Notes under the pieces: generated by a model
What the model was told of the DNA's origin: nothing
Databases searched by the model: none
Seen by the model: only the letters and a program-made list of their open reading frames with translations
Made by a program: the position numbers and the translations under genes
Shown: piece after piece, positions 5,317 to 28,706 of the stretch
Layout of the letters: each line of letters begins with the position of its first letter
How positions within the stretch are numbered: position 1 is the first letter of the stretch
Assembly (NCBI GenBank): GCA_014240055.1
Contig: JAAZXP010000004.1
Location: forward strand, 1 to 50,364
DNA from: Methanobacteriota archaeon
GTDB lineage: Archaea; Thermoplasmatota; Poseidoniia; MGIII; CG-Epi1
Direction: 5' to 3'
Length of the DNA: 50,364 nucleotides

Positions 5317-5351
5317 GAAAACCCTAATACCCACTTATTCAATAAGGTAGT

Positions 5352-6175: not shown

Positions 6176-6182
6176 TTTTTCC

Positions 6183-7103
6183 TCAATATAAATAAAAGAA
6201 TGGGAATACAAAAACCCATACTAAGTCGACGTAGTGCCAATATAAACCGAATAATTCGATTGTATCATGGTATTCTTCATTGTAGCCATCCTTATTGGAT
6301 TTAGCGATTAAATAAACCAAGGCGATTAATCCTACAAAAACATGAGCTCCATGAGTCCCCGTTGTTATGTAGAAAGTACTTCCTTCCAAACTAGTATCTA
6401 ACCAGAATCCATTTTCGTATTTTGGAGCAATACAATGATGCGCTATATCTTGAGCTGCAATACTGCATTTTTCTCCCCAGAAGTGCCCATCTTTCATTTC
6501 ACCCCATTCCCAAAGTTTTAGGACTAAGAAAATAGTACCTAGGATTAAAGTTGCAGTTAGGTATCTTGTTGTGGCTTTTGGATTATTATTCTTGGCAGCA
6601 TATAGAGCTAAAACCACCGTTAAACTACTTAGTAGAAGGGCAAAAGTATTTATGACTCCAAACACTAAATGACTTCGAATCACATCTGCTGCAGGGACCC
6701 AGCATAGTTCAAAATCCACTCCACAATCAATTCCAGGATCATAATCCGGAACAGCTGCACGATATCTTAGATAAGCACTCAAAAGAGTACTGAAAACCAT
6801 AACTTCAGTTAGTAAGAAAATCCACATTCCAAATTTACGAGTAGTAATAGTGCCCCAGTATTCATGATAAACTTCAATTTCTTCACCTTCTTCAGTAGTT
6901 TGATTCCAATAATCTTGTACCCATATCATAAAACCAGTAAGCATACCAGCAAGACCAAAAAAGAAAATGAACCAATATCCAGTATCTCCGTTTTTATCTT
7001 CACCACCTGCTGTAGCCATTACTAATCCAATAAACATTACAGCTGAAGCTACACAAAATAAAAATGGAGCGATAGTACCATGGTGTCCATGCTCATCACT
7101 CAT
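6183..7103 (-). CDS. coxC: Cytochrome c oxidase subunit III
   Basis: TGTHGAHVFVGL and LYWHYVDLVWVFVFPFFYLY. The start overlaps the coxA stop by 1 nt (TAATG). Confidence 0.9.
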   Translation of the reverse strand: MSDEHGHHGTIAPFLFCVASAVMFIGLVMATAGGEDKNGDTGYWFIFFFGLAGMLTGFMIWVQDYWNQTTEEGEEIEVYHEYWGTITTRKFGMWIFLLTEVMVFSTLLSAYLRYRAAVPDYDPGIDCGVDFELCWVPAADVIRSHLVFGVINTFALLLSSLTVVLALYAAKNNNPKATTRYLTATLILGTIFLVLKLWEWGEMKDGHFWGEKCSIAAQDIAHHCIAPKYENGFWLDTSLEGSTFYITTGTHGAHVFVGLIALVYLIAKSNKDGYNEEYHDTIELFGLYWHYVDLVWVFVFPFFYLY

Positions 7104-9367
7104 TATTCTTCCTCCTCAGCAACTTTTAGAGTTGGTATTTCTGTAAAACTATTGTGTGGTGGTGGTGATGAGGTAGCCCATTCCAAAGACCATCCATCCC
7201 AAGGATCGTCACCAGCTTCTTCACCATTTTTATAAGAATAAAATACATTATAAACAAAAATTAGTTGTGCTAGTCCAAATATCATTGCAGCTATAGATAT
7301 GAATTCATTCATATCAGTTAAAGCAGCATCATATGTTGCATATCGTCTTGGCATTCCAGATAATCCAACATTGTGCATGGGATAGAATGCAGCATTAAAG
7401 AAAATAAAAGACATTGCAAAATGGAAAAGTCCCAATTTTTCATTCATCATCTTTCCGGTCATCTTAGGGAACCAGTAATAGACTCCTCCAATGAATGAGA
7501 ATATTGTTCCTCCTACCAATACATAGTGAAAGTGAGCAACTACAAAATATCCGTCATGTAGTGCAATATCTATAGGTATTGAAGCTAAAACAATACCAGT
7601 AATACCTCCAATAGTAAACGTAATAACAGTTCCTAAAGCAAATACCATTGGTGTTTTCAATACAATGGACCCCCCCGTCATTGTGGCTAACCAATTGAAA
7701 ATCTTTATGCCCGTCGGCACCGCTACAAGCATTGTAGTCAGCATAACTATGAATCTGAAGAGCGGATCAGCTCCAGTTGTAAACATGTGGTGGCCATATA
7801 CAATAAAGGAAATAATTCCAATTGTTGCCATAGCATAAACCATTGAAGTATATCCAAAAATTGGTCTCCGGGAGAATGTAGTAATAATCTCAGAAAGAAC
7901 TCCAAATGCAGGTAAAATAACGATATAAACTTCAGGATGTCCAAAGTACCAAAATAAATGTTGCCATAATATTGGATCTGCACCAGCCTCTACATTGAAA
8001 TATAAAGTTCCAAATGTTCGGTCTGCCATCAATAAAATAAGTGCGACAGTAAAAACAGGAATAGAGAGCAATAGTAAGAATACTGTAATCAAAATTGACC
8101 ATGCGAAAAGCGGTAGCCTCATCATTGTGACACCAGGTGCTCTCATGCGAAGCATAGTTACCAAGAAATTAATTGCAGTTAATGTTGAGGAAGCACCCAA
8201 CATAATTTGTCCAACGACCCAGAAATCAGTACCTGGTGTAGTTGCAGTATCACCAGAAGAGTAAGGTGTATATCCAGTCCATCCAACATCTCCAGCTCCA
8301 CCTGTAAAGTATCCCATGTATATGACTATACCACCAGTTGGGAGTAACCAATAACTTAGTGCATTTAGTCTTGGAAATGCTAAGTCACGGGCGCCAATTT
8401 GAAGCGGAATCAAGTAATTTGCAAATCCAAAAATAATAGGCATGGCAGCCATGAAAATCATGGTTGTTCCATGCATAGTAAATGTCGAATTATATTCTTC
8501 ATAAGTTAGGAAATCACCATCTACTCTAGGTTCCATTAGTTGCCATCGAATTAAAAGCCCTAAAATACCACCAATAAAGAACCAAGCAAAACCAGTACAA
8601 ATATACATAATTCCGACATATTTGTGGTCTGTAGTTGTTAGCCAAGGATAGATTGATTTCCAGTATCCTTTCAAGACATCTTCAAATCCTTGATCTTTGG
8701 TAACCATTTGGTTTCCGATTACGACTACGCTTAGAGTAACTGCAATTATTGCAAATGCATAAATTAATTTTTGAGGGCCAGATAAATCTTCATTTGCTTC
8801 AATTTCAATTACTGCGTTTACTCCATACAGAGTTATAGCTTGTTTATTCCAATAATCATTTTGAGCTCCATCACCAGCGCCACTAACTGAATTACCATAT
8901 GCTACAAACTGTACTGATACATCGTCTTCACTTGGTGCAGTCCATTCAAAGGTCCATCCTCTGTAGTCATTACCTTCCGTAGTATGTGTTAAGTGTGTAA
9001 ATCCAAATGGTTTTTGAACAAAAGTGTCATTTGCGATAGGTGCCAGTTCACCATCACTAGCAGTTACAAAGAATCCACCTTGATTTTCACCTTCGGAGAG
9101 ATCATTAGGACCTCCAGAGATATTCAAGGTAATTGTGTAAGTTTCTCCACTTGTAAAGTTTTCAGGAAGAGTTAGGTTAACTATTACACTAGATGTCATA
9201 TCATTATTGGTATTGTGACAAGTACATCCATTAGCAATTACAGTTTCTGTAGTATTTTGATCAGTAATACCTGTAGGCAACCCATTTCCTGTAGGGAATG
9301 CAGTAATGGCAATTAGAATAGCAATTAAGAATCCAATACTTAATTTTCTTAGATTTTTATTAATCAT
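7103..9367 (-). CDS. coxA: Cytochrome c oxidase subunit I with a roughly 230-aa N-terminal extracytoplasmic extension
   Basis: Core runs from TTTDHKYVGIMYI through WFFGHPEVYI, HHMF and VAHFHYVL (haem/CuB ligand motifs). Residues 1-230 are not part of canonical subunit I. Confidence 0.95.
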   Translation of the reverse strand: MINKNLRKLSIGFLIAILIAITAFPTGNGLPTGITDQNTTETVIANGCTCHNTNNDMTSSVIVNLTLPENFTSGETYTITLNISGGPNDLSEGENQGGFFVTASDGELAPIANDTFVQKPFGFTHLTHTTEGNDYRGWTFEWTAPSEDDVSVQFVAYGNSVSGAGDGAQNDYWNKQAITLYGVNAVIEIEANEDLSGPQKLIYAFAIIAVTLSVVVIGNQMVTKDQGFEDVLKGYWKSIYPWLTTTDHKYVGIMYICTGFAWFFIGGILGLLIRWQLMEPRVDGDFLTYEEYNSTFTMHGTTMIFMAAMPIIFGFANYLIPLQIGARDLAFPRLNALSYWLLPTGGIVIYMGYFTGGAGDVGWTGYTPYSSGDTATTPGTDFWVVGQIMLGASSTLTAINFLVTMLRMRAPGVTMMRLPLFAWSILITVFLLLLSIPVFTVALILLMADRTFGTLYFNVEAGADPILWQHLFWYFGHPEVYIVILPAFGVLSEIITTFSRRPIFGYTSMVYAMATIGIISFIVYGHHMFTTGADPLFRFIVMLTTMLVAVPTGIKIFNWLATMTGGSIVLKTPMVFALGTVITFTIGGITGIVLASIPIDIALHDGYFVVAHFHYVLVGGTIFSFIGGVYYWFPKMTGKMMNEKLGLFHFAMSFIFFNAAFYPMHNVGLSGMPRRYATYDAALTDMNEFISIAAMIFGLAQLIFVYNVFYSYKNGEEAGDDPWDGWSLEWATSSPPPHNSFTEIPTLKVAEEEE

Positions 9368-10098
9368 GCAGTCTCCGTAATGTATAGTTTAGCTAACATT
9401 TGTGAGTGGCTTTTTCCACACATTTCAGCACAATATATGTTGTATTCACCAGGACTGACAGTTCCAGTATCTAACCATGCTAAAGTTTGTAAATTAGGAA
9501 CAACGTCTTGCTTAATTCCAATTTCTACAATATAAAACGCATGTAGTACGTCTTCAGAATTTATATTAAATCTAACAATACTATTATGAGGTATTTCTAA
9601 ACAATTATAGGTAATTTGCATATTTTGCATTGGATTTCCGTCTTGGTCAACTCCACCACATTTAGTAAATTCAGAAGGCATAGTATAATTTGAAGGCATT
9701 TCAAAAATCCACTGCCATTGTACTGCAAGAACTTCGACAGTCACATCAGTATCTTCTTCATCAGGTACATCCCACAAATAATTTAGAGGCGCTAAAGAGA
9801 TGATAGTAAGCCAAGTAACTAAAAGTAAAGGTGCAATAGTCCATGCTAATTCTATTACTGTATTTCCTCGTTCATGAGGGAAAACACCAGCTTCGAGAGC
9901 ATCTTTTGGATCAGGGTCACCGTCATTACGTCTAAAATAAACTAAATTATAGAAAAGCCAAGTAATTACGAGCAATCCTACAATTACCGACCAAATAAAC
10001 ATCTGCCATACAACTCCTCCAAAACCGCTACTAGTTCCTCCAAAGCTATTCCACATCGAGGGATTATCGAAAAAAATCAGGTCTTCGAGTAGTGACAT
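9364..10098 (-). CDS. coxB: Cytochrome c oxidase subunit II (CuA centre, no fused cytochrome c)
   Basis: DVLHAF ... CAEMCGKSHSQM gives the H, C-x-E-x-C-x3-H-x2-M CuA ligand set. Two N-terminal TM helices. ATGA overlap with coxA. Confidence 0.9.
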   Translation of the reverse strand: MSLLEDLIFFDNPSMWNSFGGTSSGFGGVVWQMFIWSVIVGLLVITWLFYNLVYFRRNDGDPDPKDALEAGVFPHERGNTVIELAWTIAPLLLVTWLTIISLAPLNYLWDVPDEEDTDVTVEVLAVQWQWIFEMPSNYTMPSEFTKCGGVDQDGNPMQNMQITYNCLEIPHNSIVRFNINSEDVLHAFYIVEIGIKQDVVPNLQTLAWLDTGTVSPGEYNIYCAEMCGKSHSQMLAKLYITETA

Positions 10099-10162
10099 TT
10101 TATTTCCTCAAGAAAGTAAAGTATTTTCCATATTTAGGATGGGTTAATTAAAGCTGATTACT

Positions 10163-11077
10163 TTACAACTCAATCAAATAGGCCGAATCAATAACTAGAC
10201 AGATAAACAAAGAATATAGATAGATATTTGAAAACTTAAATAGATCCCAAGCATCATTTTCAGACTTAGTTTTACGTAATGAAAATGCACAATAGGTAAA
10301 ATAACCGGAAAGAAGCATTCCTGTAATTAAGAAAAACACACCTGTATTTCCATAAAATGAAATAATTAAAGTAGTTGCAATCAGTGATGTAGTATATGCA
10401 GCAATATGATTCCTAGTAACATCTTCGCCTTTTACTACTGGAAGCATTGGAACACCAGCTTCTCCATAATCCTTTCTTTTAGAAAGTGTAAGAGACCAAA
10501 AATGTGGTGGGGTCCACATGAATATAATTAAAACCATTAACCAAGGCAATATTGCTTCTGTTTGTCCCGATGCAGCAACCCAACCAATTGCTGGAGGTGT
10601 TGAACCGGCAAGACCTCCAATCACAATATTGTGAGGAGTTCTTCTTTTGAGAAGCATAGTATAGATAAATACATAGAAAAAGGCACTAAATGCAGTAATC
10701 ATTCCCGCTTCTTTATGGCTTAGAAATGTAACTAAACCAATTCCGCTTGCACAAATTAAAAGTCCAAAAGTGAGGGCGTGATTTGGAGAAATGTATCCTG
10801 AGGGAATTGGTCTTTTTTCTGTTCTTTCCATTAAAGGATCAATATCTCTTTCATACCACATATTGATAGCCATAGAACCGCCACTAGCAAGAGAGCCTCC
10901 TAAAAGTACAATAAGAGAAGTCCAAATACTATCTAGAATAGTTCTTCCATTATCATATCCCTCTCTTAAATCATAAACTAAAACACCACAGATAGCTGTA
11001 GCTTGTAGAAGAACTACTACTCGGGGTTTCATTAGAATCCAGTAGATTTTTAGCAAAGAAGGTCTAGTTTGTGACAT
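10163..11077 (-). CDS. ctaB: Protohaem IX farnesyltransferase (haem O synthase)
   Basis: UbiA-family motifs NMWYERDIDPLMERTEKRPIPSG and a polytopic membrane profile. Sits between ctaA and coxB. Confidence 0.9.
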   Translation of the reverse strand: MSQTRPSLLKIYWILMKPRVVVLLQATAICGVLVYDLREGYDNGRTILDSIWTSLIVLLGGSLASGGSMAINMWYERDIDPLMERTEKRPIPSGYISPNHALTFGLLICASGIGLVTFLSHKEAGMITAFSAFFYVFIYTMLLKRRTPHNIVIGGLAGSTPPAIGWVAASGQTEAILPWLMVLIIFMWTPPHFWSLTLSKRKDYGEAGVPMLPVVKGEDVTRNHIAAYTTSLIATTLIISFYGNTGVFFLITGMLLSGYFTYCAFSLRKTKSENDAWDLFKFSNIYLYSLFICLVIDSAYLIEL

Positions 11078-12098
11078 TTTTCTCCTTTATTGAGATATTG
11101 ATTAGCAAATGAGTAGTTGCTAGAGTAAGAAAGACACATACGCCAACAAGTAGATGCATAAGTGAAAGCCACCCAAGGAAGCTTCCATCAACAGCTGTAA
11201 CAACATATAACCCTCCTAAAATAATATTCACAAAGTAAATTATTCCTGCAGTTTTAAGCATAGTTCTGACTATTGATTTTGAATTATTAAACTCTTTGTT
11301 TGCTTTTCTCTCTAAGTACAATAGCAATCCGCCCACGATCACGGCTGAGACTCTATGTCCATAATTCAGCATAATTCCGAATTGTTCTAATGTAGGCAGA
11401 ATTGAGCTTTGACACAACGGCCATCCTTTGTAAAATCCAATATCACAGGCAGCTCTATGGTAGCTTGTTGACAAGTACGCACCTATCATTAGCTGCACGA
11501 GAACTATGATACACATATACCAAATATATTTTGCTAATCTTTCGCTGATTTTATCAACACGTAATTTGTCAGGCAACCCCTCCTGTTTTTCCCACCATGC
11601 AAAGCCAACAGTAAGCAACGACACAGTAAATATTAGGGCCATGAATAAATGGAGTGATACAGTCCAGGGTGCGTTATCTAGATCAACAGTTACGTAACCT
11701 AGTACGGCTTGCATTATCAGGAACACACTAGATACAAAATGTATTCTGTAAACTTTATTTCCTATTTTATCTCTAAGTGACCAAGCAGTGTAATGGCTGT
11801 ACGCAACTAAAATCCCTATTATTCCAACTAGGCCTCTATGTGCCCATTCAGTAAAAATTTGGTAGGTTGTGTATCTGTGAGTTCCTCCTCGAGAATCTAC
11901 TTCGTCTGGGTTTTCTTCCCACCATTCACCTTGTTCTTCAGGTGTTATATCGAAGCCCCAGGTACCAAAGCATGTTGGCCAATCAGGACAACTTTCTCCA
12001 GCTCCACTAATTCGAATCCATCCTCCTGTAGTTATAATCAAAAAGGCAATCAGAGCCAATCCGAATGGAATCAAATGTGAGCGATACCACGGAGTCAT
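11064..12098 (-). CDS. ctaA: Haem A synthase (CtaA/COX15)
   Basis: Eight-helix profile, extracytoplasmic Cys pairs (CPDWPTC; CDIGFYKGWPLC) and conserved His in helices. 14-nt overlap with ctaB. Confidence 0.8.
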   Translation of the reverse strand: MTPWYRSHLIPFGLALIAFLIITTGGWIRISGAGESCPDWPTCFGTWGFDITPEEQGEWWEENPDEVDSRGGTHRYTTYQIFTEWAHRGLVGIIGILVAYSHYTAWSLRDKIGNKVYRIHFVSSVFLIMQAVLGYVTVDLDNAPWTVSLHLFMALIFTVSLLTVGFAWWEKQEGLPDKLRVDKISERLAKYIWYMCIIVLVQLMIGAYLSTSYHRAACDIGFYKGWPLCQSSILPTLEQFGIMLNYGHRVSAVIVGGLLLYLERKANKEFNNSKSIVRTMLKTAGIIYFVNIILGGLYVVTAVDGSFLGWLSLMHLLVGVCVFLTLATTHLLINISIKEKNVTN

Positions 12099-12215: not shown

Positions 12216-14027
12216 ATGTTCAGAAAGGCATTAGCACTGAGCTTGTTCGTCTCTCTTGTTTTGAGTGGCATATTCTTTTCACCAGCTTATAAAGCAGAAG
12301 AAGAAGAATTTTATGAAGATCAACCATATCTGCATTATGAATTGCGTATTCATGAGTTAGATACTAAGTCTATAAATGAGGAAGATAGCAATGATTTTAG
12401 TGGTTCAGTTTACATGCGTAGAGAATACTCTTCTGAAGAATCTAAAAATTTTAGAGAGTTATTGATAAAAAGTTATAAAATTTCTATTTTAGATGAAGAA
12501 TATATACAGAATATTAATTCAATTCTAACTTCTGTTGAAGAAGGAACAATGGATGCAGAGAAGGGCATAGATGACATTTCTAATCTAACTACAACATATG
12601 ATGGTAAAGCAAAGACTTTCTTGGATTATGAGATTACAACTAGTGAAATGGTTACACTAGATATGATAACGTGGGTCAGAGAAAATTTTGTTATGGAATC
12701 TACAGTTGATGAGATTCCCCGTGGTGTAATTTCTATGCGCATTGAAAACATAAATGAGACGCTAGATAGTGAAGGTGATATTGCTGAAAAAATTAATGAC
12801 ATTGAATATGAGATAACCAAAGAACATTATCATAGAGAAACAACAATCAATGGAGGTCCATTGTTAGAGATAAACGGTGTTCAAGCAGTGTGGTCTAATT
12901 GGGAACTTGAAAGTGTAGGTCCAACATCTCATTTGCTTGGCGGAGTTTCTTCTCAAAATGACAACCGTCTTTGGATTGGACAATGGATGCACATTGAATT
13001 TCCTAATGCAACACATACTTCTGGTAATCACACATTAAAATTTGAGTGGGCAGACGAAGACTTTAAAGGAAAAGAAACTAGTTTCCATGTAGGTTTAGGA
13101 TATGGTGAAGTTTTCACCAATATAACTACGAATGGGAATGATATTTACAGAGATGATTTTGAATCAGATTGGTTTAGTTTTTATTCGGACAACAATACAG
13201 TGGGCTCTTTCAGTGCAAATTTTGGACCCGGATATCCTGACTTTGAGACTTATAGTTGGCAAGAAGCTGTAGACTACGCTTCAACGCTCACTTATAATGG
13301 CGTCAATGGACATCTTGCAACAATAACTACTCAGGAAGAAGCTGATTTGATATATTCATTATTAGATGGAAGCTCATATTGGCTTGGTGGTTTTCATAAT
13401 ATGTCAAATCCAGATTATTTAGAACCATCCAATGGCTGGGAGTGGATAACTGGCGAACCTTTCAGTCAGGAATTCTGGGGCGATGGTGAACCTAATGAAG
13501 CTGGACCTGAAGATTGTCTTGAGGTCTGGGGCTTTGATAAATTTTTGAATGATAATCGCTGCCATATTGGATGGATGGGATTAGTCGTTGAATATGAAAT
13601 GACTAATGGTTCTAATCATTATGAAGCATATGTTCCAATGTGGAATTGGGATATGGAGAATGAAACGGATGTATTCTCAATGGTTATGGCAATGCCTCTC
13701 AGTGACGAGGAAAGAAATGAAATTTTGAAAGAGCAAGGTGATCCAGATGCGGATGATGATGGAATCGTGGATATTTTTGATGAAGACGATGATAATGATG
13801 GAATTGCTGATGATAATGATATGGATGATGATAATGACGGAATTGATGATGAGAATGACCGTTGTTCAGGAACTAAGAGTGGAGAGGCTGTTGATGAAGA
13901 TGGTTGCTCAGCATCTCAAATAATTGGAGAACTAAGCGATGAGGAAGGTGGCCTTCCTGGTTTTAGTTTTATTGTATCAATCATTGCAGTTTTAGGCTTA
14001 GCTATATTACGTAAGCCAAGACTGTAA
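12216..14027 (+). CDS. Secreted surface protein: C-type lectin-like domain + Asp-rich thrombospondin-type-3-like Ca repeats + PGF-CTERM anchor
   Basis: Signal peptide. CTLD spans 13254-13598 (WQEAVDYA..GHLATITTQEEADLIY..YWLGGF..WEWITGEPF..GEPNEAGPEDCLEVW..LNDNRCH..LVVEYE). DxDxDG repeats at 13740-13907. C-terminal GGLPGFSFIVSIIAVLGLAILRKPRL. Confidence 0.75.
   Translation: MFRKALALSLFVSLVLSGIFFSPAYKAEEEEFYEDQPYLHYELRIHELDTKSINEEDSNDFSGSVYMRREYSSEESKNFRELLIKSYKISILDEEYIQNINSILTSVEEGTMDAEKGIDDISNLTTTYDGKAKTFLDYEITTSEMVTLDMITWVRENFVMESTVDEIPRGVISMRIENINETLDSEGDIAEKINDIEYEITKEHYHRETTINGGPLLEINGVQAVWSNWELESVGPTSHLLGGVSSQNDNRLWIGQWMHIEFPNATHTSGNHTLKFEWADEDFKGKETSFHVGLGYGEVFTNITTNGNDIYRDDFESDWFSFYSDNNTVGSFSANFGPGYPDFETYSWQEAVDYASTLTYNGVNGHLATITTQEEADLIYSLLDGSSYWLGGFHNMSNPDYLEPSNGWEWITGEPFSQEFWGDGEPNEAGPEDCLEVWGFDKFLNDNRCHIGWMGLVVEYEMTNGSNHYEAYVPMWNWDMENETDVFSMVMAMPLSDEERNEILKEQGDPDADDDGIVDIFDEDDDNDGIADDNDMDDDNDGIDDENDRCSGTKSGEAVDEDGCSASQIIGELSDEEGGLPGFSFIVSIIAVLGLAILRKPRL
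13740..13907 (+). repeat. Asp-rich GAT/GAC low-complexity coding tract (DDDGIVD, DDDNDGIAD, DDDNDGIDD)
   Basis: Direct reading of the sequence. It generates the spurious out-of-frame ORF 13738..13923. Confidence 0.8.
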
Positions 14028-15541: not shown

Positions 15542-15549
15542 TATATATA
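15542..15549 (+). promoter_or_regulatory. Candidate archaeal TATA box (TATATATA) centred about 27 nt upstream of ATG 15572
   Basis: The position implies a leaderless or near-leaderless mRNA. The same geometry occurs at several first genes in this window. Confidence 0.4.
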
Positions 15550-15571: not shown

Positions 15572-18500
15572 ATGAACTTAAGCAGATTTTCTGTGATAGC
15601 TGTGTTTTTCATGATGATCATGAGTGCTTTCGTCACAGTTCCAACATTCAATGTAGGAGCTGATGAGGAAGCTGGAGAGGATGATGATGAAGGACCTTAT
15701 CTGAATACTTGGCCATCTACTGGTGAGGATTATGAGATGAGTACCGATGATGTATCCATATTTATTATGGCTGCCAATCTCACTAACGGCACTTCCTACA
15801 CTATCTCGTGGCTGATTAGTAAAGATTCCAATGATGAACTATACCTCGCGGCTGAAGGTTACTGGGACTTTTCCGTCGACTCTTCAAGCAAACAATATTT
15901 CCTTGATCCAAACTATTACTTAGATGATGACCTCGGTCCAGGTTGTTACATGTTTGAAGGTTGGCTTTTTGATAACGATGCCGATGAACATATTGAGTAT
16001 GAGATTTGGCCATTTACCCTAGATATGCCTTTTAGTGATTGTTGGGGTAGTGGTGAAGGTGGTTGTATGAATTATGATGATACTAATGGCAATGGACTTT
16101 ATGATGAGGGTGAACCTTGTTATGATGATGAGAATGGAGGGGAATGTCCTTTTGATGAGGATAACCCAGACAGCCCTTGTAATGCACAAGAGTGTATAGA
16201 TCATGAATCACAAGAATGTGCAAACTTTATAGAAAATTATTGTGCGAACAATGAAGATTCATATTGTGGTGCAGCCGGTATGGATATGGTTTGTTATGAT
16301 GTGGCTACTCATGAAATAAATTTTGATATTAGAACTGCAGTAGACTGTGAAGCTGCAGGATTGATGTGGGTTTCACCAATCAGCGGACCTGATGATGGTC
16401 GCGATGATCGCCCAGTAGCTTTCCATGCTACTATGACTATGAAATCATTAGAAGAGTGGACAGTTGATTATAATGGAGAAATGCCAGTCGATTGGTCTAA
16501 TGACATGCGTAACGAAATGTCAAACATGTGTGAAATGATGATGGGAACAGACTTTGGGGAAATTAGTCAAGAATGTTTCGATTACTGGGTTGATATGAGT
16601 TCAAATGGAGGTCATGATGATCATGGCGAACATGATGATGAATTCACATGCCCATCAGATATGGATGATGCAACTTGTGCAACGTTTATGGAATGTTCAG
16701 AAAATGATAGTATGAGCATGGATTGTTTTAGAGCGATGTACAACTACTGTTATGATAACACAGATTCAGAAATGTGTGAAGAGATGATGAGCAGTGATGA
16801 AGACGATGGTGGTCAGTTTATCTGGGGAATTGTTGCTTACGAAGCTGGGCACATTGATGCTGCAACTTTAATGGACGAATACATAATTCCAGAGTTTGGA
16901 GATTTTATGGATGATGGAACAAGTGATTCAACTGACTCTGGCAACGCAGTATTGTATGACGTTCAGACATTCAATATGGATTCAGATGGCGAACTAATCA
17001 TTCATCCACAATTTATGGAAGAGATAATAACCACACCAGATTTTGTTTGTGGAAATGAGCAAACAATAGATTTCCGTAATGTGAATGATGGTGAAGAAGA
17101 CTGTGATGATGGTTCAGATGAACAACAATATGATGATAATGCTGATGAAATTAATTGGTTTGATTGTCATGATGGAACTGAAATTTCGATGACTTTAGTT
17201 AATGATTATGAATGGAATTGTGGAGATGGAGAAGATGAATATCACGAACACTACCATTCCTGGTGGGGTGAGGTTTATCTCTTTGAAGGCGATTATTCAG
17301 CAGGGTTAACTGATTTTAATAATCTTGAAAATATTGCATTTAAAACATCACATCAAGAATGGAAAGATGAAAACAAAACCGACATTAACTATGAAAGTTT
17401 CACGAAAGCAGACATATCTGCAGGAACTTGGTCATTAGTAACAATCGGTAGCTGTCATACAGAATGGGGTGAAGATGATGAAGGAAATTGGGTATTGGTT
17501 GGATATGATTGTCATGGTGAAAATGGTAATCATACAAACAGTGGCTCTTATTCACATAAGTTAGAGTTTGGAAGCGAATCTTGGCTTGTAAATGGCAGCA
17601 TAGATCATGAAAGTATGGAAATGGCAAATTTCCCTTATATGGATAATTACGATGATGACCAGACAGAATTTTTGATGTATCACACACAATCTTTCAGTAT
17701 AGATCAAGATTCTTCAGTAAGTATTTTTTCTGCAGGTTGGAATTGCTATGATTACGACGAAGACGGTGTAGATGATGATTGCTGGGGTAATTCTCCAGGA
17801 TTATATATTTACCATGATGAAGATTTGATTGCTTCTAATAAACATTATCACAGTGAGAATCTATTTTGTCCTATAGATTCAGAAGACCAGGATTACTCAA
17901 ATTGTAGTTATGCAATGTTAGAAGTAGATTTAGTTGCAGGTGACTATACAATTTATACGACATTTGATTCTGAAGCTAGTTATTACAACAATATAGATGG
18001 AGCTTATGTTGTATTTGAGGGTGAAGAATCTGATGATTGGGGCGGCCACATGGAAGACAATCATTGGGAATGGCATGAAACTGATGGTGATGAAGTTATG
18101 CAAACTGTTGCTTATGATGGGTCTGTTTATGATTTAGACTATGAAGCTTTCTGGAGCGAGGCATACGATTTTGAATGGAATGATGCCGAAGAAAATCCTA
18201 AAGCTGTTGAAGAAGAATTTGGTTCTGTTTATGAACTTTATGAAAATTATGAGAATGTGTTAGAAACTGAAGGTGAAGGTTGTGACGGTTGTACGGGTAA
18301 TTTGGAAGAGATGGATGCAGATACCTCTTTTGATATAACCAATCAAAATGATTTTGAAAATTGGACATATAATTATGATTTCGAACAATATTATTTCCAG
18401 TTCATGGATGACAATGAAAACGGCGTTTACGATTCTGGTGAAATATATGCAGTGTCCAGCGAAGGTCCAGGTGACTCAGAAGATCAATACGTACTAGTAG

Positions 18501-19723
18501 AAGGTACAGCCGATCGAAAACATATGCCTAGAGCTGATCAAGCTGAATATGAACCATATTGTACAGATGAGGATGGTAATGTGATAGAATGTGACGATGT
18601 CTTTGAAATGTTTGCTTACATGTTTATGATTGCAGAGAATGCAACACACTATGAAGAAGGCGACCTAACTGCAGTAGAAGCAGCAGATAATTCAGTTGAG
18701 TTATTCTATATGCTTGTAGATGCAGGAATGTTTGAACGAGGAGAAGATGACCACGATCACCATGGAGACGACCCTAACGGCGATGAGCCAGGTCTTCACC
18801 ACCACGGGGATGAAGATTATCATCATCAGCATGGTGATAGCGATACTTCTTCACATGCCGATTATGACAGACACCATGACCACGATGACAATCATGGAGA
18901 TCATGATGATCATGGAGATCACAATGGCCATGACGATGATGAACGCGATGAAGATGATAATCCTCCACTCTTAGATGGAATTGTTGGTGTAGGTGGTGAA
19001 GATGTTGAGCCACTACCATTAGCATTGAATGTGGTAGGTTCATTAGTTGATAATGAAGATACACCAATTATGATGGGTGCTTCTTTTAATCTAATTTTTG
19101 AAGGTGCTGACGAATCATTAGATGTTCATTCAGTTTACATTCCTATCGAAGATGATGTTCCGTGGCATATTGAGATGATTCTATTGGAAGGTTATGAAGT
19201 CAAATCCTGTGAGAAATGTGAAGATTTAGAAATAGATGGGAACCGTGCTAAATTCCATTCAAATGAACCTGTAATGGTTATGTTCGGTAAAGCTGCAACA
19301 ACTGAAGAATGTGATCAAACAGTAACAATAGGTGAAGGCGGTTATACATTTGAACCTGCTGAAATTACAATATCAGTAGGCGATACAGTATGCTGGATCT
19401 GGGAAAATACAGCAGATGTTCACAATGTTATTGCAGTTACAGATTTAGATTCATTAGTAAATCTAGAATCTGGATTTAATAGTGGTGAACCGTCCCAAAC
19501 TGTGGACTTCAGATACACTTTCACAGAAGACAGTATGACTTACTATTACGTATGTGAGCCACATGCAACCATGGGTATGGTAGGTACAGTAACCGTTGGC
19601 ACAGGATCAGAAGATGATAGAATACCTGAGATTATTGATGATTCAGGACTGCCAAATGTTAGCTTCATTGTTGGTGCATTAGTATTAGTCGGCGCAGCAG
19701 GTCTACGTCGCAGAATACACTAA
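15572..19723 (+). CDS. Giant (1383 aa) hyper-acidic Cys-rich surface protein with a C-terminal type-1 copper (plastocyanin/halocyanin-like) domain and a PGF-CTERM-like anchor
   Basis: Signal peptide MNLSRFSVIAVFFMMIMSAFVTVPTFNVGA. Cupredoxin domain at about 19330-19600: GDTVCWIWENTADVHNVIAV ... YYYVCEPHATMGMVGTVTV (H, C-x2-H-x4-M). Anchor GLPNVSFIVGALVLVGAAGLRRRIH. Confidence 0.8.
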   Translation: MNLSRFSVIAVFFMMIMSAFVTVPTFNVGADEEAGEDDDEGPYLNTWPSTGEDYEMSTDDVSIFIMAANLTNGTSYTISWLISKDSNDELYLAAEGYWDFSVDSSSKQYFLDPNYYLDDDLGPGCYMFEGWLFDNDADEHIEYEIWPFTLDMPFSDCWGSGEGGCMNYDDTNGNGLYDEGEPCYDDENGGECPFDEDNPDSPCNAQECIDHESQECANFIENYCANNEDSYCGAAGMDMVCYDVATHEINFDIRTAVDCEAAGLMWVSPISGPDDGRDDRPVAFHATMTMKSLEEWTVDYNGEMPVDWSNDMRNEMSNMCEMMMGTDFGEISQECFDYWVDMSSNGGHDDHGEHDDEFTCPSDMDDATCATFMECSENDSMSMDCFRAMYNYCYDNTDSEMCEEMMSSDEDDGGQFIWGIVAYEAGHIDAATLMDEYIIPEFGDFMDDGTSDSTDSGNAVLYDVQTFNMDSDGELIIHPQFMEEIITTPDFVCGNEQTIDFRNVNDGEEDCDDGSDEQQYDDNADEINWFDCHDGTEISMTLVNDYEWNCGDGEDEYHEHYHSWWGEVYLFEGDYSAGLTDFNNLENIAFKTSHQEWKDENKTDINYESFTKADISAGTWSLVTIGSCHTEWGEDDEGNWVLVGYDCHGENGNHTNSGSYSHKLEFGSESWLVNGSIDHESMEMANFPYMDNYDDDQTEFLMYHTQSFSIDQDSSVSIFSAGWNCYDYDEDGVDDDCWGNSPGLYIYHDEDLIASNKHYHSENLFCPIDSEDQDYSNCSYAMLEVDLVAGDYTIYTTFDSEASYYNNIDGAYVVFEGEESDDWGGHMEDNHWEWHETDGDEVMQTVAYDGSVYDLDYEAFWSEAYDFEWNDAEENPKAVEEEFGSVYELYENYENVLETEGEGCDGCTGNLEEMDADTSFDITNQNDFENWTYNYDFEQYYFQFMDDNENGVYDSGEIYAVSSEGPGDSEDQYVLVEGTADRKHMPRADQAEYEPYCTDEDGNVIECDDVFEMFAYMFMIAENATHYEEGDLTAVEAADNSVELFYMLVDAGMFERGEDDHDHHGDDPNGDEPGLHHHGDEDYHHQHGDSDTSSHADYDRHHDHDDNHGDHDDHGDHNGHDDDERDEDDNPPLLDGIVGVGGEDVEPLPLALNVVGSLVDNEDTPIMMGASFNLIFEGADESLDVHSVYIPIEDDVPWHIEMILLEGYEVKSCEKCEDLEIDGNRAKFHSNEPVMVMFGKAATTEECDQTVTIGEGGYTFEPAEITISVGDTVCWIWENTADVHNVIAVTDLDSLVNLESGFNSGEPSQTVDFRYTFTEDSMTYYYVCEPHATMGMVGTVTVGTGSEDDRIPEIIDDSGLPNVSFIVGALVLVGAAGLRRRIH
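18746..18960 (+). repeat. His/Asp-rich low-complexity coding tract inside the giant protein
   Basis: DDHDHHGDDPNGDEPGLHHHGDEDYHHQHGDSDTSSHADYDRHHDHDDNHGDHDDHGDHNGHDDDERDEDD. The CAT/CAC/GAT periodicity opens shadow ORFs on both strands. Confidence 0.85.
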
Positions 19724-19753: not shown

Positions 19754-20242
19754 ATGACAGAGGGCATACCAGTAGTCAGAATGTATACTGACGGTAGTGG
19801 TCACACTAGATTTACAAAAATGAATATTCCAGTAGAGAAGAAAACAGGTCTTGGATCTGTAGGGATGTTTTCATCCTTATTTCTTAATAAGAATATTCAA
19901 GACAATACGGGTGATCTTAAAACACAATTTGCACTTACGCCAGTACCTGATAATCTAAAAGGAGAAGGGCCAAAATTGGCACATACGGCACCTAGGAGGC
20001 AGTTAGTATTGACCTTGAGTGGGTGTCTTGAATTCAAAAGTTGCGGTGTTGAAAAAGAGGATGCAGAGCATAAAGTCATAATTCGCCGAGGTGATATTTT
20101 ACTTGCCGAGGATTTGGAGGGTGAAGGACATGTATGGCAATTTATTGAAGCTCAAGATGGCCGTCTCTATCCGTGGGTTAGATGTTACATTCATTTAGGT
20201 GAAGAGTATGAACATTTTGTATCACAATTAGAACCAATTTAG
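19754..20242 (+). CDS. Hypothetical 162-aa protein (possibly cupin-like beta-barrel)
   Basis: ORF only. No motif I can name with confidence. Confidence 0.4.
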   Translation: MTEGIPVVRMYTDGSGHTRFTKMNIPVEKKTGLGSVGMFSSLFLNKNIQDNTGDLKTQFALTPVPDNLKGEGPKLAHTAPRRQLVLTLSGCLEFKSCGVEKEDAEHKVIIRRGDILLAEDLEGEGHVWQFIEAQDGRLYPWVRCYIHLGEEYEHFVSQLEPI

Positions 20243-25021: not shown

Positions 25022-25948
25022 TTATTCTAGTTGTATTTTAGAAGTGCCTTTGACTTCTACATCTTCATAAGTAATTGTAATTGTGATAAAACAATAGGAA
25101 TCGCAGATATCGAAATCATTTTCAAATATCGCAATATTTTCATTTATTTCCCATAAATCAGTTTTATCTCCTGATTCAATTATAGTACACTTTGCAGGAG
25201 AAACTAAGTTTGGATTTGAGAGTGCAGAAAATTCAGTATCTGTTAATGCGCCTATCATAAAAGACACATATCTAGGCTCATCATCATCGTTATAGTAACT
25301 AATAAATTTAACTTTGTAATATTTTCCATTCGCATTTATTACATATATTTTGTCTTCTATTTCAATACTGTGTGTAGTTATTTTGTAATCATACCAGTCT
25401 AGTCGTTCATCACTAGTTTCGGTAAAATCTTGATTTGGATAATTGGTTAATTCTTCAAATTCCATATCTTCTACAATAGTTCCTGTAATATTTTCAGACA
25501 GATAGATATCAGTTTTAGAGAATCGAATATCAAAATTCGTTTCATCGGTTTCAATAAGATTGTCTAAATTCACATGGGTGAATTCATCTTCAGAAGTGGC
25601 ATCTACAATTACAGTAAAGGTCATTCCATCAGAACTTAATTTAGGTGAAACTTTAGCCTTACCAATTTCTTTTGATGTAAAATTGCCCTTAGAACAATCC
25701 ATTTTCTCAGTTGCATTTTCAATACTAATTCTCAATTTTGACCATTCTAAACTCTCATCTGCTTTTGAAAAGGATAATCCAAAAAGAGAATTATTTCTTT
25801 CATTAGTAAGATTACTACTCGAGTCATTCGCAGTGAATACATTGGTAGTTCCTAAGTCCTCTTCGTATGCATTTATCATAAATGCCCAGATTCCGCCGAT
25901 TACCAATAATAAACTGACTATTCCAATTCCGATTTGTTTTAAATTCAT
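25022..25948 (-). CDS. N-terminally anchored extracytoplasmic protein, last gene of the ABC importer operon
   Basis: Single TM (IGIGIVSLLLVIGGIWAFMI) followed by an acidic, beta-rich region. Its ATG overlaps the permease stop (ATGA). Confidence 0.5.
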   Translation of the reverse strand: MNLKQIGIGIVSLLLVIGGIWAFMINAYEEDLGTTNVFTANDSSSNLTNERNNSLFGLSFSKADESLEWSKLRISIENATEKMDCSKGNFTSKEIGKAKVSPKLSSDGMTFTVIVDATSEDEFTHVNLDNLIETDETNFDIRFSKTDIYLSENITGTIVEDMEFEELTNYPNQDFTETSDERLDWYDYKITTHSIEIEDKIYVINANGKYYKVKFISYYNDDDEPRYVSFMIGALTDTEFSALSNPNLVSPAKCTIIESGDKTDLWEINENIAIFENDFDICDSYCFITITITYEDVEVKGTSKIQLE

Positions 25949-26820
25949 TTATTTTTCTTTCCTCTGAAAAAGTTTCCGAACAAATTTGGAGATTTAAAAG
26001 TTGCATCTTCTACGAAATAAGATCTAGCCTTAATTGAGGCTAAATCAATAATAATGACAACTCCAAACAAAATAATCAATAAGGCTATTACTTTATCGTA
26101 TTGTAAAAATTTAAGATATGTTGAAATATAGTATCCAATTCCTCCCGCCCCTACAATTCCTATAACTGAACCATGTCTTACATTATATTCAAACATAAAA
26201 AATAGTTGTGAGATGAGATTATTTGCAGTTTCAGGTATTACTACTCTTTGAATAATTTCACTATTCTTGAGCCCCATCGCTTTTGCAGCGTCAAGAGGAT
26301 CATTGGATAATCCTTCTATTGCTTCATACTGTAGTTTTCCTAAGTATCCAACAGTATAGAATGTCATTGCTAAAACCCCTGAAACTGGCCCTAGCCCTAC
26401 TAATATAACAAAGAAAATTGCCCAAATAATACTTGGTAATGTCCTCATTGCTGCTAACAATACTCTAAATGGAATTGCTATTGAATCTCTATAAAGATTT
26501 CTAGAAGCTAGAGTAGCAAGAGGTAAGCTTAGAATAAATCCAAACCCAGTTGCAACAAATGCAATCTTGAGAGTTTCCATTATTCCAATGTATGCTGGCG
26601 AGCATAGAAAATCCCAGTTTCTATCACAAACAGGATATGCTTGAGCTTCTATTACTTTCCAGTTAGGTGGCCATAATGATTCATAGAAAAATGTTGAAAG
26701 ATTATCTAGACTATTTTCAAGACTAGCCCAGTCTCCATCTACAAGATTAACAAAAACTAGCCATGTAGTAAAAAGTATAAAAGTTATGAATATTGGGTAT
26801 TTTTTCCTTGCAATATTCAT
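25945..26820 (-). CDS. phnE: ABC transporter permease, PhnE type
   Basis: EAIEGLSNDPLDAAKAMGL ... FEYNVRHGSVIGIVGAGGIGYYI is the PhnE signature region. Confidence 0.85.
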   Translation of the reverse strand: MNIARKKYPIFITFILFTTWLVFVNLVDGDWASLENSLDNLSTFFYESLWPPNWKVIEAQAYPVCDRNWDFLCSPAYIGIMETLKIAFVATGFGFILSLPLATLASRNLYRDSIAIPFRVLLAAMRTLPSIIWAIFFVILVGLGPVSGVLAMTFYTVGYLGKLQYEAIEGLSNDPLDAAKAMGLKNSEIIQRVVIPETANNLISQLFFMFEYNVRHGSVIGIVGAGGIGYYISTYLKFLQYDKVIALLIILFGVVIIIDLASIKARSYFVEDATFKSPNLFGNFFRGKKNK

Positions 26821-27500
26821 ATTTGCACCTCATTTAAAACAGAATATCCTTTTTCTTTATTCTGTTCTAATTTCAAGCAACGTTTTGCAAGCTTTGCTCT
26901 TTCAATATTATGTTCTACTATTATTAAAGTAGTATTTTCTCTTTCAACATAATCGAGCATAGTTTTCCAAACACTATCTACAGTTTTGTTATCTAGTTCA
27001 CTAAGGAATTCATCAGCTAAAATTAGTTTAGGTTCTTGAGCCATTGTTCTTGCTATGGCTACCCTTCTTTGCTGTCCTCCTGATAATCGTTTTATTGGTT
27101 CATCAATTTTATCAGATAGATTCATTAGGTCTATTGATTTTTCTACTTTAGTGAGAACACTATCGTCGTGAAAACCAGATATAGATCTTAGAATAGATTC
27201 ATTACATATGGCACCTTCTAGGACATTAAAGAAAACAGTTTCATGTTTTACTAAACCTAACTTTTGAGGAATATATCCAATTCTTCCTCTGTTTTGTTCA
27301 TTATCAAAAACTTTCAAACTTCCGCTTATTGGCTTTACTAAATTAGCAATATTTTTTAGAAGAGTAGTCTTACCTATTCCCGATTCTCCTATAATAGATA
27401 TGATTTCACCTTGTTTAACTTGAAGATTTTTTATTTTAGCTAAAATATTATCTGGTGAATACCCTATCTTCAAATTCGCCATTTCAATTACAGTATTCAT
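26817..27500 (-). CDS. phnC: ABC transporter ATP-binding protein, PhnC type
   Basis: Walker A GESGIGKTT, signature LSGGQQRRVAIAR, Walker B LILADE, H-loop VEHN. 4-nt overlap with phnE. Confidence 0.85.
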   Translation of the reverse strand: MNTVIEMANLKIGYSPDNILAKIKNLQVKQGEIISIIGESGIGKTTLLKNIANLVKPISGSLKVFDNEQNRGRIGYIPQKLGLVKHETVFFNVLEGAICNESILRSISGFHDDSVLTKVEKSIDLMNLSDKIDEPIKRLSGGQQRRVAIARTMAQEPKLILADEFLSELDNKTVDSVWKTMLDYVERENTTLIIVEHNIERAKLAKRCLKLEQNKEKGYSVLNEVQI

Positions 27501-27541
27501 ATAATTTTCACTTCGATATTTTATACTAGAAGTTCCTACCT

Positions 27542-28591
27542 TTAAGATTCAGGTTCAATAATTTCAAATTTAGTATTGAAATAGTTTGTAATTCCTGGAA
27601 TATCTTTAATTAAATCTCCATAAGAACCAAGATGGGTTGTAGAATCGGTTGCCGTTATACCTGTTGTTCCAAGTATGTTTTCTAATATTACGCTACCTTC
27701 TGTGGAATCATTCATACTAAGGAGTGCATCCTGAACTTTCTTTTGAATTTCAGTGTCGATATAGTTTGGATTATACATTACTGGATGGGAAGGTGCAGAT
27801 CCGTAGGAAGGTAATAAAATGTAATTCTCTTCTGCAAGGCACCACTCCTCATTATCTGCTGAGTTTTCATTTCCACAATAGCCAGCAACAGTCGAATCTT
27901 TAGCAAACGCTACATCGCCTATACCCTCTGATAGACACTTTACTGCACCTGAATAGCCGTAGTAAGGAGTTCCTGATTCAGGAATACTTGAATTATCGTT
28001 GAAAAAATTATAAACTGTGCTTCTCAAAGATTCTATATCAGTTTCATCGCCAACAATATCTGCATAGCCCTTTCCTATCAAAAACCCCATAGGCAATAAC
28101 ATTCCTGCCGACTTTAACCACCCTGTATGACAAGATGTTTTACCTTCTAACAGTGCAAATGGATCGGTAGAATCATCATCATCCAAATACGCTTCTGCCA
28201 TTTCAGAATCTTTCAATACGACTGCATGTGCATTATAGAAAGTACGGCCATCGCTTTTCTGATCGGCTGCAATTGCTTCAAGTCCATATTGTTTCCAACC
28301 AACCCATGCAGCAGCCCCGTCCATGAATGCAATATGTGCATTTCCAAACCTTAGTGCTTCAATTATTGCGCCTTCTGAGGTTATTGGATAAAGTTCCACA
28401 TCCATATCAAGTTCTTTAGCTAGATAATCGGCCATTACTTGCGGATTATCATCAGGATTATCATAATCTTCTTTTACTTCATATGCGATTATGAATTTTT
28501 CTTTTTGAGTCGTTTCATCTTCACTCAAACAACCTGTAAAGGTCGTCATTACGAACAACATAGCAAGACCCAATGACACACTTTTTTTCAT
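27542..28591 (-). CDS. Lipoprotein substrate-binding protein with transferrin-family signature (predicted Fe3+/anion binding), in the PhnD position
   Basis: Lipobox-like TTFTGC. Motifs FMDGAAAW, TFYNAHAVVLKDS, GKTSCHTGWLKSAGMLLPMGFL, YYGYSGAVKCLSEGIGDVAFAKDSTV and APSHPVM line up with the transferrin N-lobe blocks that carry the Asp/Tyr/Tyr/His iron ligands and the carbonate-binding Thr. Confidence 0.8.
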   Translation of the reverse strand: MKKSVSLGLAMLFVMTTFTGCLSEDETTQKEKFIIAYEVKEDYDNPDDNPQVMADYLAKELDMDVELYPITSEGAIIEALRFGNAHIAFMDGAAAWVGWKQYGLEAIAADQKSDGRTFYNAHAVVLKDSEMAEAYLDDDDSTDPFALLEGKTSCHTGWLKSAGMLLPMGFLIGKGYADIVGDETDIESLRSTVYNFFNDNSSIPESGTPYYGYSGAVKCLSEGIGDVAFAKDSTVAGYCGNENSADNEEWCLAEENYILLPSYGSAPSHPVMYNPNYIDTEIQKKVQDALLSMNDSTEGSVILENILGTTGITATDSTTHLGSYGDLIKDIPGITNYFNTKFEIIEPES

Positions 28592-28610
28592 TATTTTTCA
28601 CCGTTTGTAG

Positions 28611-28641
28611 TTTAGGCTGCCCTAAATTAGGTGAGCCTAAA
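28611..28641. promoter_or_regulatory. Two abutting DtxR/IdeR-box-like palindromes (TTTAGGCTGCCCTAAA and TTAGGTGAGCCTAA)
   Basis: Perfect 6-bp and 5-bp inverted arms around 4-bp spacers. They resemble the TTAGGTTAGCCTAA core of the DtxR consensus and lie between the SBP operon and the divergent dtxR-family gene. Confidence 0.6.
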
Positions 28642-28650
28642 AAATGCCAC

Positions 28651-28658
28651 TATATATA
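28651..28658 (-). promoter_or_regulatory. Candidate TATA box (TATATATA) for the minus-strand importer operon
   Basis: About 60 nt upstream of ATG 28591. A start about 27 nt downstream would fall on the box A/B palindromes. Confidence 0.35.
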
Positions 28659-28659
28659 G

Positions 28660-28675
28660 TTTAGGTTTCCCTAAA
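28660..28675. promoter_or_regulatory. Third DtxR-box-like palindrome (TTTAGGTTTCCCTAAA)
   Basis: Perfect 6-bp arms. Lies immediately upstream of the dtxR TATA element, which suggests autoregulation. Confidence 0.55.
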
Positions 28676-28676
28676 T

Positions 28677-28686
28677 TTTTTATAAT
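28677..28686 (+). promoter_or_regulatory. Candidate TATA box (TTTTTATAAT) about 25 nt upstream of ATG 28707
   Basis: The geometry implies a leaderless dtxR transcript. Confidence 0.4.
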
Positions 28687-28706
28687 GGCTCAGTTATTAT
28701 GATGTC

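Follow-up and report, generated by a model that had tools for sequence, protein, structure and literature searches.

Positions 15,572 to 19,723 of a 50,364-nucleotide stretch of DNA from a Marine Group III (MGIII) archaeon (contig JAAZXP010000004.1 of assembly GCA_014240055.1, positions 1 to 50,364; hereafter, the window) hold a gene for a giant surface protein of 1,383 residues. Directly above its membrane anchor the protein ends in a blue-copper (type-1 copper, or cupredoxin) domain, and its gene lies near the operon of a terminal oxidase. The explanation that we prefer, and consider somewhat better than an even bet, is that the protein is a tethered electron donor to this oxidase, carried beneath a disulfide-stapled, calcium-binding surface stalk. 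It brings together an intact copper site, a set order of domains, a family that is conserved within and restricted to MGIII, a hypervariable N-terminal ectodomain and the context of the gene; to these we add, by inference, electron transfer to the oxidase, the disulfides, calcium binding and exposure of the ectodomain at the cell surface.

The open reading frame (ORF) has its exact bounds at 15572..19723 (+). Its product is, as the original prediction held, a hyper-acidic, Cys-rich, exported and anchored protein encoded near cox: D+E make up 24.4% and K+R 2.4% of its 1383 residues, it contains 39 Cys and 52 His, and it tops the large proteins of the window in both acidity and Cys content. Acidity as such is not peculiar to it, since the exported proteins of the window contain 17–21% D+E throughout. 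The N-terminus (MNLSRFSV...) is a Sec-type signal with neither a twin arginine nor a lipobox Cys, and the C-terminus runs from GLPNVSF through the hydrophobic helix IVGALVLVGAAGL to RRRIH. From these features the product is predicted to be Sec-exported, to have a mass of ~150 kDa and to be anchored C-terminally in the cytoplasmic membrane.

The copper domain is the best defined part of the protein. The Pfam model Copper-bind (PF00127) matches aa 1250–1342 (E = 1.5e-13; 51.4 bits against a cut-off of 21.2), and both motifs that had been singled out earlier, ADVHNV and YVCEPHATMGM, are found there. The four ligands, H1284, C1328, H1331 and M1336, are invariant in 32/32 members of the protein's family, the set on which the alignment and conservation counts given here are based, and have the plastocyanin-like spacing C-x2-H-x4-M. 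The axial ligand is the invariant M1336; M1334 varies within the family. The closest solved relatives by sequence are cyanobacterial plastocyanins, with which the CEPHxxxGMVG loop and the ligands align residue for residue. We built AlphaFold2 (AF2) models of the C-terminal part (aa 1126–1352) and of the ectodomain (aa 31–1130). In the former the cupredoxin domain follows a seven-strand beta-sandwich pre-domain and is modeled with a confidence score (pLDDT) of ~90; Foldseek gives it a probability of 1.00 to plastocyanin and pseudoazurin, with target-normalised TM-scores of 0.7–0.8 to plastocyanins and other cupredoxins. The profile searches and structure prediction by segment that had been proposed as a check thus bear out the cupredoxin fold, and the claim of a complete type-1 copper site at the C-terminus is upheld by sequence and model alike. 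Among NCBIfam models, the top match is the halocyanin model TIGR03102 (50.7 bits, under its cut-off of 93.8), and the plastocyanin equivalog TIGR02656 scores 43.6 bits, under its cut-off of 87.85. Because both curated models score well under their cut-offs, the domain is best classed as a plastocyanin-type cupredoxin that would lie outside both named subfamilies, halocyanin and plastocyanin. C1247 and C1274 of the cupredoxin are likely to form a disulfide.

About 17 residues separate the end of the cupredoxin from the C-terminal membrane helix. Nowhere is the family more conserved than in this linker and the anchor; P1361, F1365 and the RRR cluster are invariant. The anchor had been described as PGF-CTERM-like. 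The resemblance holds for the three-part layout of a sorting signal at the extreme C-terminus (motif, hydrophobic helix, basic cluster) and fails for the motif itself: the NCBIfam PGF_CTERM model (TIGR04126) does not match the 1383-aa protein at E <= 1, and the family motif, GLP[NS][VI][SG]F, has an invariant P and F four residues apart and no Pro-Gly-Phe. Some fragments of family members are annotated by JGI as ‘MYXO-CTERM domain-containing’. No archaeosortase gene was seen among the ORFs of the 50-kb window.

The cox operon lies upstream of the giant gene on the opposite strand, at a distance of 3.5 kb and with two genes between. Its CoxII subunit (called CoxB in the original prediction) bears the CuA motif CAEMCGKSHSQM but lacks a cytochrome c domain, as had been stated. 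Motif and profile scans revealed no plausible ORF with CxxCH in the 50 kb, where the motif occurs solely in a 70-aa antisense ORF, nor is there a second cupredoxin in the 50 kb; apart from the giant protein, a loose Cu-motif scan picks up just the CuA site of CoxII. With a CuA-type oxidase and no cytochrome c visible in the window, a cupredoxin as the donor is a sensible reading, and tethered blue-copper proteins serve as electron carriers in other archaea without cytochrome c. Proximity to cox is seen repeatedly in MGIII and, independently, in one subgroup of Marine Group II (MGII); in MGIII the operon is found just upstream wherever contigs reach that far (the window, L001, L004, L013–L015, L043 and L056). 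In 15/15 MGIII loci a T[TA]ATATATA box stands 23–30 nt 5' of the ATG, even where the other upstream sequence differs. Because this TATA box is conserved at a constant distance, the giant gene appears to be a transcription unit of its own, with a leaderless or short-leader transcript.

The check for the same architecture in related genomes disclosed an MGIII-wide family. A search of 5.8 billion proteins found ~35 clusters of proteins of 1000–1380 aa with the same layout, and the family is confined to MGIII. Members of the window protein's own 90% cluster come from MGIII euryarchaeote metagenome-assembled genomes (for instance, CG-Epi2) and are annotated no further than as hypothetical or ‘Blue (type 1) copper domain-containing protein’. 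Of those that are full-length, most, on >10 independent contigs, likewise have 1383 aa. Common to the family are 22–27% acidic and 2–4% basic residues, the same signal peptide and the same anchor, and no member has lost its reading frame, a copper ligand, the signal peptide, the anchor or the promoter. One locus (L019, PCCQ01000068.1) and one cluster member (MAR75980.1) are labelled Candidatus Neomarinimicrobiota / Marinimicrobia bacterium; these labels look like binning errors, because L019 carries the MGIII gene order.

Against this constancy of plan, the ectodomain itself diverges steeply. Neighbor genes are 89–94% identical to those of the window, yet the ectodomain in the same genomes is 25–36% identical. 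Between one such member (L004/P0022) and the window, identity is 54% in the pre-domain, 63% in the cupredoxin and 89% in the anchor. Identity is also mosaic along the protein, reaching 90% in the pre-domain vs 69% in the cupredoxin of P0006. The pattern would fit an exposed surface part under diversifying selection with recombination. Moreover, the gene is duplicated: L005 and L006 have tandem giant paralogues at the locus, and in three related MGIII lineages (L084, L043, L056) a gene for a 629–648-aa fasciclin-cupredoxin protein precedes the giant gene. In two of these paralogues, of 646–648 aa (L043, ~4400..6420; L056, 4465..6411), the motif FYCTVHSSM near the N-terminus is a candidate for a second type-1 copper loop.

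The calcium-binding modules that had been proposed for the ectodomain survive in part. Two stretches (~aa 490–556) resemble LDL-receptor class A (LDLa) modules, with a summed PF00057 score of 24.5 bits that is borderline against the cut-off of 24.1; VLDL-receptor chains are weak PDB sequence matches for the region. Each module has a D-x-DG-S-DE cluster within an acidic calcium-cage sequence (DGEEDCDDGSDE and NCGDGEDE), and D513, D516, E517 and G553–E556 are at least 90% conserved in the family. There are two Cys per module, C493/C511 and C532/C550, rather than the six that make three disulfides. What stands of the claim is the acidic cage motif, by which the modules would bind calcium. In the helical region preceding the modules, C320, C335, C360, C369, C393 and C402 are near-invariant. 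Total Cys counts in the family vary from 31 to 57, yet they are odd in 30/32 members, as fits one copper-ligand Cys plus Cys gained or lost pairwise in disulfides. Some 19 disulfides would staple the ectodomain of the window protein.

For the rest of the ectodomain, comparisons yield little beyond the family. The AF2 model is poor (mean pLDDT 53), and Foldseek against the PDB returned nothing at E <= 0.001; the best match, at E = 2.6e-3, is to adhesin Ig-like tandems, with an S-layer protein also among the weak resemblances, so that the model points only to a generic Ig-like tandem. Scanned segment by segment against Pfam at E <= 10, the Cys-rich region, the beta core, the helical hairpin and the pre-domain matched no credible family. 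A profile of aa 561–1055 searched against 1.84 billion representative proteins gave 61 matches, which are family members, their fragments, or short acidic D-x-D-x-DG repeats of cadherin- and dockerin-type proteins, and the cupredoxin is present in every full-length strong match that was scanned. By these searches the ectodomain appears to be an orphan, seen solely in fusion with this copper domain. The pre-domain that joins the two has the invariant residues D1180, H1186 and Y1208 and an invariant hairpin pair, C1213/C1216, whose spacing differs among members (CxxC, CxxxC, Cx9C); sequence and model suggest that the pair is a structural disulfide. A Sco-like copper-chaperone site (C1213-x-x-C1216 with H1186) was considered here and set aside, because the Cys spacing varies and the pair spans a predicted beta-hairpin turn.

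Part of this architecture extends to the sister group. A pattern-based scan of species-representative genomes found the full C-terminal region in MGIII alone, and the cupredoxin with an anchor, at 39–54% identity, in dozens of MGII (Poseidoniales) genomes. The MGII product consists of a signal peptide, 0–4 fasciclin (FAS1) domains, the cupredoxin, a linker and a true PGF-CTERM, for a total of 177–800 aa (177–196 aa in the bare form and 313–800 aa behind 1–4 FAS1 domains). At one MGII locus, where the cupredoxin gene follows genes for a redoxin, an aquaporin, an unknown protein and enolase, the product is 196 aa long without FAS1 in L061 and 656 aa long with three FAS1 domains in L074. The occurrence of both forms at this one post-enolase locus indicates that cupredoxin and anchor make up the constant core, to which exchangeable N-terminal parts are added. 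In two further MGII loci (L045 and L064), a gene for one FAS1 domain plus cupredoxin lies ~1 kb from the MGII cox operon, a case of cox linkage independent of MGIII. These findings undercut the original prediction's premise of single-domain carriers: the closest cupredoxins in MGII and MGIII are, as a rule, the final domain of anchored proteins of 300–1380 aa.

The MGII fasciclin-cupredoxin proteins, which are annotated ‘plastocyanin’ or ‘halocyanin’, have in common with the MGIII protein a homologous cupredoxin with the motifs GDTVCWQW and YxCEPH and a preceding C-D motif, as well as a Sec signal, an acidic linker, a C-terminal helix, a basic tail and odd Cys counts. They differ in their N-terminal part, which has 0–4 FAS1 domains, 12–17% D+E and 3–8 Cys, and in their true PGF motif; the MGIII protein has instead 1,000–1,250 orphan, Cys-rich, hyper-acidic residues and the motif GLPxVxF. 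A Cys motif that seemed common to the window protein (CYDVATHE...C...MW) and MGII (CYNxxTH...C..YMW) was dropped, BLASTP giving no significant alignment beyond the cupredoxin and anchor. Halocyanin and plastocyanin genes of MGII are reported, from metatranscriptomes, to be among the most highly transcribed MGII genes (PMC9723583). In the literature on MGIII respiration, on Poseidoniales halocyanin and on fasciclin plus cupredoxin, we found no description of these fusion architectures.

In the explanation that we prefer, the cupredoxin, as the last folded domain, would be the working part of the protein. Held ~17 residues above the anchor, it would thereby stand at the height of the CuA domain of CoxII and would shuttle single electrons from a quinol-oxidising complex, not encoded in the window, to the CuA site of the aa3 oxidase. 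The 1,200 N-terminal residues would be an accessory, lineage-specific ectodomain of helical Cys-rich segments, two LDLa-like modules and several beta-sandwich domains. This ectodomain may form a calcium-stabilised, disulfide-stapled, polyanionic stalk that points outward from the cupredoxin and is part of the exposed cell surface, where it would diverge, recombine and duplicate rapidly. The ‘periplasm-like scaffold’ that had also been suggested would be compatible with the data.

Several points weigh against a tethered oxidase donor. The role of the protein as donor is read from sequence and models. The giant gene stands outside the cox operon, on the opposite strand, with its own promoter and with two genes between; the MGIII genomes are closely related, so their common gene order may be simply inherited; and most MGII fasciclin-cupredoxin genes lie away from cox. 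Another small cupredoxin, or a fasciclin-type paralogue such as those of L043, L056 and L084, could be the main donor, and no quinol-oxidising partner turned up in the 50-kb window. A load of 1,200 residues is awkward for a carrier that has to dock with two partners. Finally, the fold assignments within the ectodomain are weak, as its mean pLDDT of 53 implies.

The most durable competitor, which we judge to be unlikely, is that this is a coat or adhesion protein, of the cell envelope or exposed to viruses, whose copper domain is non-respiratory and performs, for example, redox chemistry on extracellular metals or substrates, while another cupredoxin serves the oxidase. The hypervariable, mosaic and duplicated ectodomain is what one expects of exposed surface proteins; MGII relatives place fasciclin adhesion domains at the same position, some MGIII genomes have the second fasciclin-cupredoxin paralogue, and what faint structural resemblance there is points to an S-layer protein and to the Ig-like tandems of adhesins. 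Genes for iron uptake, including those for a transferrin-like binding protein and a DtxR-type repressor (and, in L001, FTR1), are found 5–9 kb downstream, but they are separated from the giant gene by MutL on the other strand. Against this reading, the cupredoxin sits at the membrane end rather than the exposed end, and its lone type-1 site has no catalytic partner, there being no second copper site, haem motif or other cofactor signature in the protein. Bare anchored cupredoxins at the orthologous MGII locus make the copper domain the constant element. Nor are glycosylation sequons enriched, at 11 vs 9.8 +/- 2.7 in shuffled sequences, whereas such enrichment serves as the criterion for archaeal S-layer glycoproteins.

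Very unlikely, in our judgment, is the combination of metal scavenging, storage and electron transfer that the original prediction had raised, in which the ectodomain would take up and store metals, whether copper or others, to supply cupredoxin and oxidase. It draws on the His tract (18 His in the densest 70 residues, aa 1051–1120) and on the 24% of acidic residues, as well as on the LDLa-like acidic clusters, a nearby gene for the copper-handling protein SCO1 and short local matches to ZnuA-family proteins (PF01297) that cover 3% of the query in the full-length search. But a comparable His tract at this position is found solely in the closest relative, P0002; among the 32 members, a few carry such a tract at another place and most lack it. 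Strong acidity is common among the exported proteins of this genome, LDLa-type clusters bind calcium as a structural ion, and the MGII orthologues have fasciclin repeats or no ectodomain at all. The idea that the gene is an assembly chimera or in decay, its copper domain no longer functional, is effectively refuted: the 220–230-aa ‘stand-alone’ versions among database entries (P0122 and P0134), which might pass for independent small genes, are artefacts of 100-N scaffold gaps or contig ends, and both the length of 1383 aa and the frame, ligands, signal peptide, anchor and promoter are kept as described above.

Tethered cupredoxin carriers are already known from archaea and bacteria, and the protein itself is present, uncharacterized, in public databases; the window protein differs from each known system in a characteristic way. 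Cyanobacterial plastocyanin (1bxu, 1j5c) is its best match in sequence and structure, with the same ligand set and C-x2-H-x4-M loop, yet it is soluble, has a single domain of ~100 aa and resides in the thylakoid lumen, whereas the domain in the window is a tethered part of a giant archaeal protein. Halocyanin of Natronomonas pharaonis is a small lipid-anchored blue-copper protein that is thought to feed a terminal oxidase and is anchored N-terminally by a Tat signal and lipobox. Like the window protein, it is an archaeal, membrane-tethered type-1 copper protein of a host that uses copper proteins instead of soluble cytochrome c; unlike it, halocyanin has no giant ectodomain, and the 1383-aa protein has a Sec-like signal and a C-terminal anchor. 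Sulfocyanin (SoxE) of Sulfolobus and auracyanin of Chloroflexus are small, N-terminally anchored cupredoxins of respiration or photosynthesis, and their working mode, at the membrane surface between a quinol oxidase complex and a terminal acceptor, is likely the same. The sulfocyanin gene lies inside an oxidase supercomplex operon, whereas the giant gene would be a separate transcription unit. The plant phytocyanins (stellacyanin, uclacyanin) join a cupredoxin, with axial Gln or Met, to a cell-wall glycoprotein-like domain and a GPI anchor. As in the window protein, a type-1 copper domain and a long module of the surface or cell wall are thus combined in one chimera that is held in the membrane at its C-terminus. 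The phytocyanins, however, are eukaryotic, have another domain order and show no homology beyond the cupredoxin fold.

What is new is that, class-wide, a long surface protein has the carrier at its foot, and that in MGIII the carrier is always fused to an orphan, fast-evolving ectodomain. MGII and MGIII archaea are abundant and uncultured, and their respiratory chains are known from annotation alone. Their blue-copper carrier would be the membrane-proximal domain of anchored, multi-domain surface proteins rather than a free small protein and, in MGIII, would always be fused to the disulfide-rich, hypervariable ectodomain of ~1,200 residues. The ‘plastocyanin’ and ‘halocyanin’ annotations in these genomes and metatranscriptomes would then need a different reading. 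The locus offers a concrete candidate for the oxidase donor and, at the same time, a rapidly diversifying surface locus whose product may be a virus receptor or envelope component. A stronger version, which we regard as improbable, is that the respiratory carrier physically forms the foot of a main envelope protein that faces outward, in MGII with fasciclin repeats. If true, the fastest-evolving coat, exposed to viruses and grazers, and an essential respiratory domain would be on one polypeptide, and the stalk would mark off a pseudo-periplasmic space over the oxidase. Being fused to a carrier that the cell cannot do without, the coat gene would also be protected from loss, even as recombination and tandem duplication diversify its outer part.

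Table 1. Coordinates of the giant gene, its parts and the nearby genes within the 50,364-nucleotide window.
Feature	Position	Strand	Basis and remarks
VKOR, redoxin and SCO1-AhpC fusion	2766..5316	+	Pfam; beside the cox operon
aa3-type haem-copper oxidase operon (CoxIV, CoxIII, CoxI, CoxII with CuA, CtaB, CtaA)	5795..12098	-	Pfam and NCBIfam; presumed electron acceptor
TATA box TATATATA	15542..15549	+	~26 nt 5' of the ATG; sequence reading
Sec-type signal peptide, aa 1–30 (MNLSRFSVIAVFFMMIMSAFVTVPTFNVGA/DEE)	15572..15661	+	Sequence; 52–93% identity across the family
Variable insert, aa 41–165	15692..16066	+	In ~10–25% of the family (occupancy 0.09–0.26); low AF2 confidence
Cys-rich acidic, mostly helical region, aa 180–484	16109..17023	+	Near-invariant Cys; AF2 helices, pLDDT up to 89 in parts; partly conserved
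Two single-disulfide LDL-receptor-A-like modules, aa 485–560	17024..17251	+	Pfam PF00057; conserved
Beta-sandwich-rich ectodomain core with conserved Cys pairs, aa 561–840	17252..18091	+	AF2 strands, pLDDT 65–83 over aa 660–830; layout conserved
Second variable segment, aa 841–965	18092..18466	+	Occupancy 0.3–0.5; missing from about half of members
Conserved helical hairpin, aa 980–1055	18509..18736	+	Family conservation; AF2 helices (model residues 977–1023), pLDDT up to 89
His/Asp-rich low-complexity tract, aa 1056–1125	18737..18946	+	Composition; not a conserved family feature
Beta-sandwich pre-domain, aa 1126–1245	18947..19306	+	Alignments; AF2 seven strands, pLDDT 65–80; conserved
Predicted plastocyanin-type type-1 copper cupredoxin, aa 1246–1345	19307..19606	+	Pfam, PDB relatives, AF2, Foldseek, ligand invariance
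Acidic linker of ~17 residues, sorting-signal-like anchor, stop codon	19607..19723	+	Sequence; most conserved part of the family
Orphan 162-aa cytoplasmic protein	19754..20242	+	30 nt 3' of the giant gene; 82–94% identical in every MGIII locus extending downstream

The gene order around the giant gene is conserved in MGIII wherever a contig extends far enough: M20 peptidase, giant gene, orphan 162-aa gene, MMPL transporter and then MutL. The 162-aa protein has no signal peptide and no Pfam, NCBIfam or PDB match. A functional link of the giant gene with the 162-aa gene and MMPL cannot be claimed, as both are constant in MGIII and absent beside the MGII cupredoxin genes. On the other side of the cox operon, the genes for VKOR, a redoxin and the SCO1 fusion protein (486 aa, with SCO1 joined to an AhpC/TSA-like domain) appear to be a compact gene set through which disulfides would be formed and copper delivered outside the cytoplasm; with VKOR, the window supplies oxidising machinery for the predicted disulfides.

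Other genes of the window lie further from the subject. An iron-uptake cluster (25022..29366) encodes an HmuY-like protein, an ABC transporter with a transferrin-like binding protein and a DtxR/FeoA repressor; in L001 (14036..15579), an FTR1 permease adjoins the repressor. No link between this cluster and the copper protein was found. A large acidic orphan of 1809 aa (37312..42741, -; 17% D+E, pI 4.1) has no Pfam or NCBIfam match and no C-terminal anchor. In another exported acidic protein (12216..14027, +; 603 aa), a C-type lectin domain (PF00059) is combined with an acidic repeat of the DDDND type and a C-terminal anchor of the LPGF type, which the PGF_CTERM model scores under threshold; its gene is located between cox and M20 in some MGIII genomes and is missing there in others, such as L004.

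The oxidase itself has a predicted outward-facing part. CoxI (7103..9367, -; 753 aa) has at its N-terminus, within aa 1–200, a signal or transmembrane segment together with a ‘choice-of-anchor V’ domain of ~160 aa that lies outside the cytoplasm (NF041895, 86 bits vs a cut-off of 42; weak similarity to the Reeler domain, E = 0.005); the extension has no solved relative by sequence. This outward domain could be a docking site for the electron donor. The extension is also present in CoxI of MGIII L004 (755 aa), and the CoxI ORF of MGII L045 is of comparable length (776 aa).

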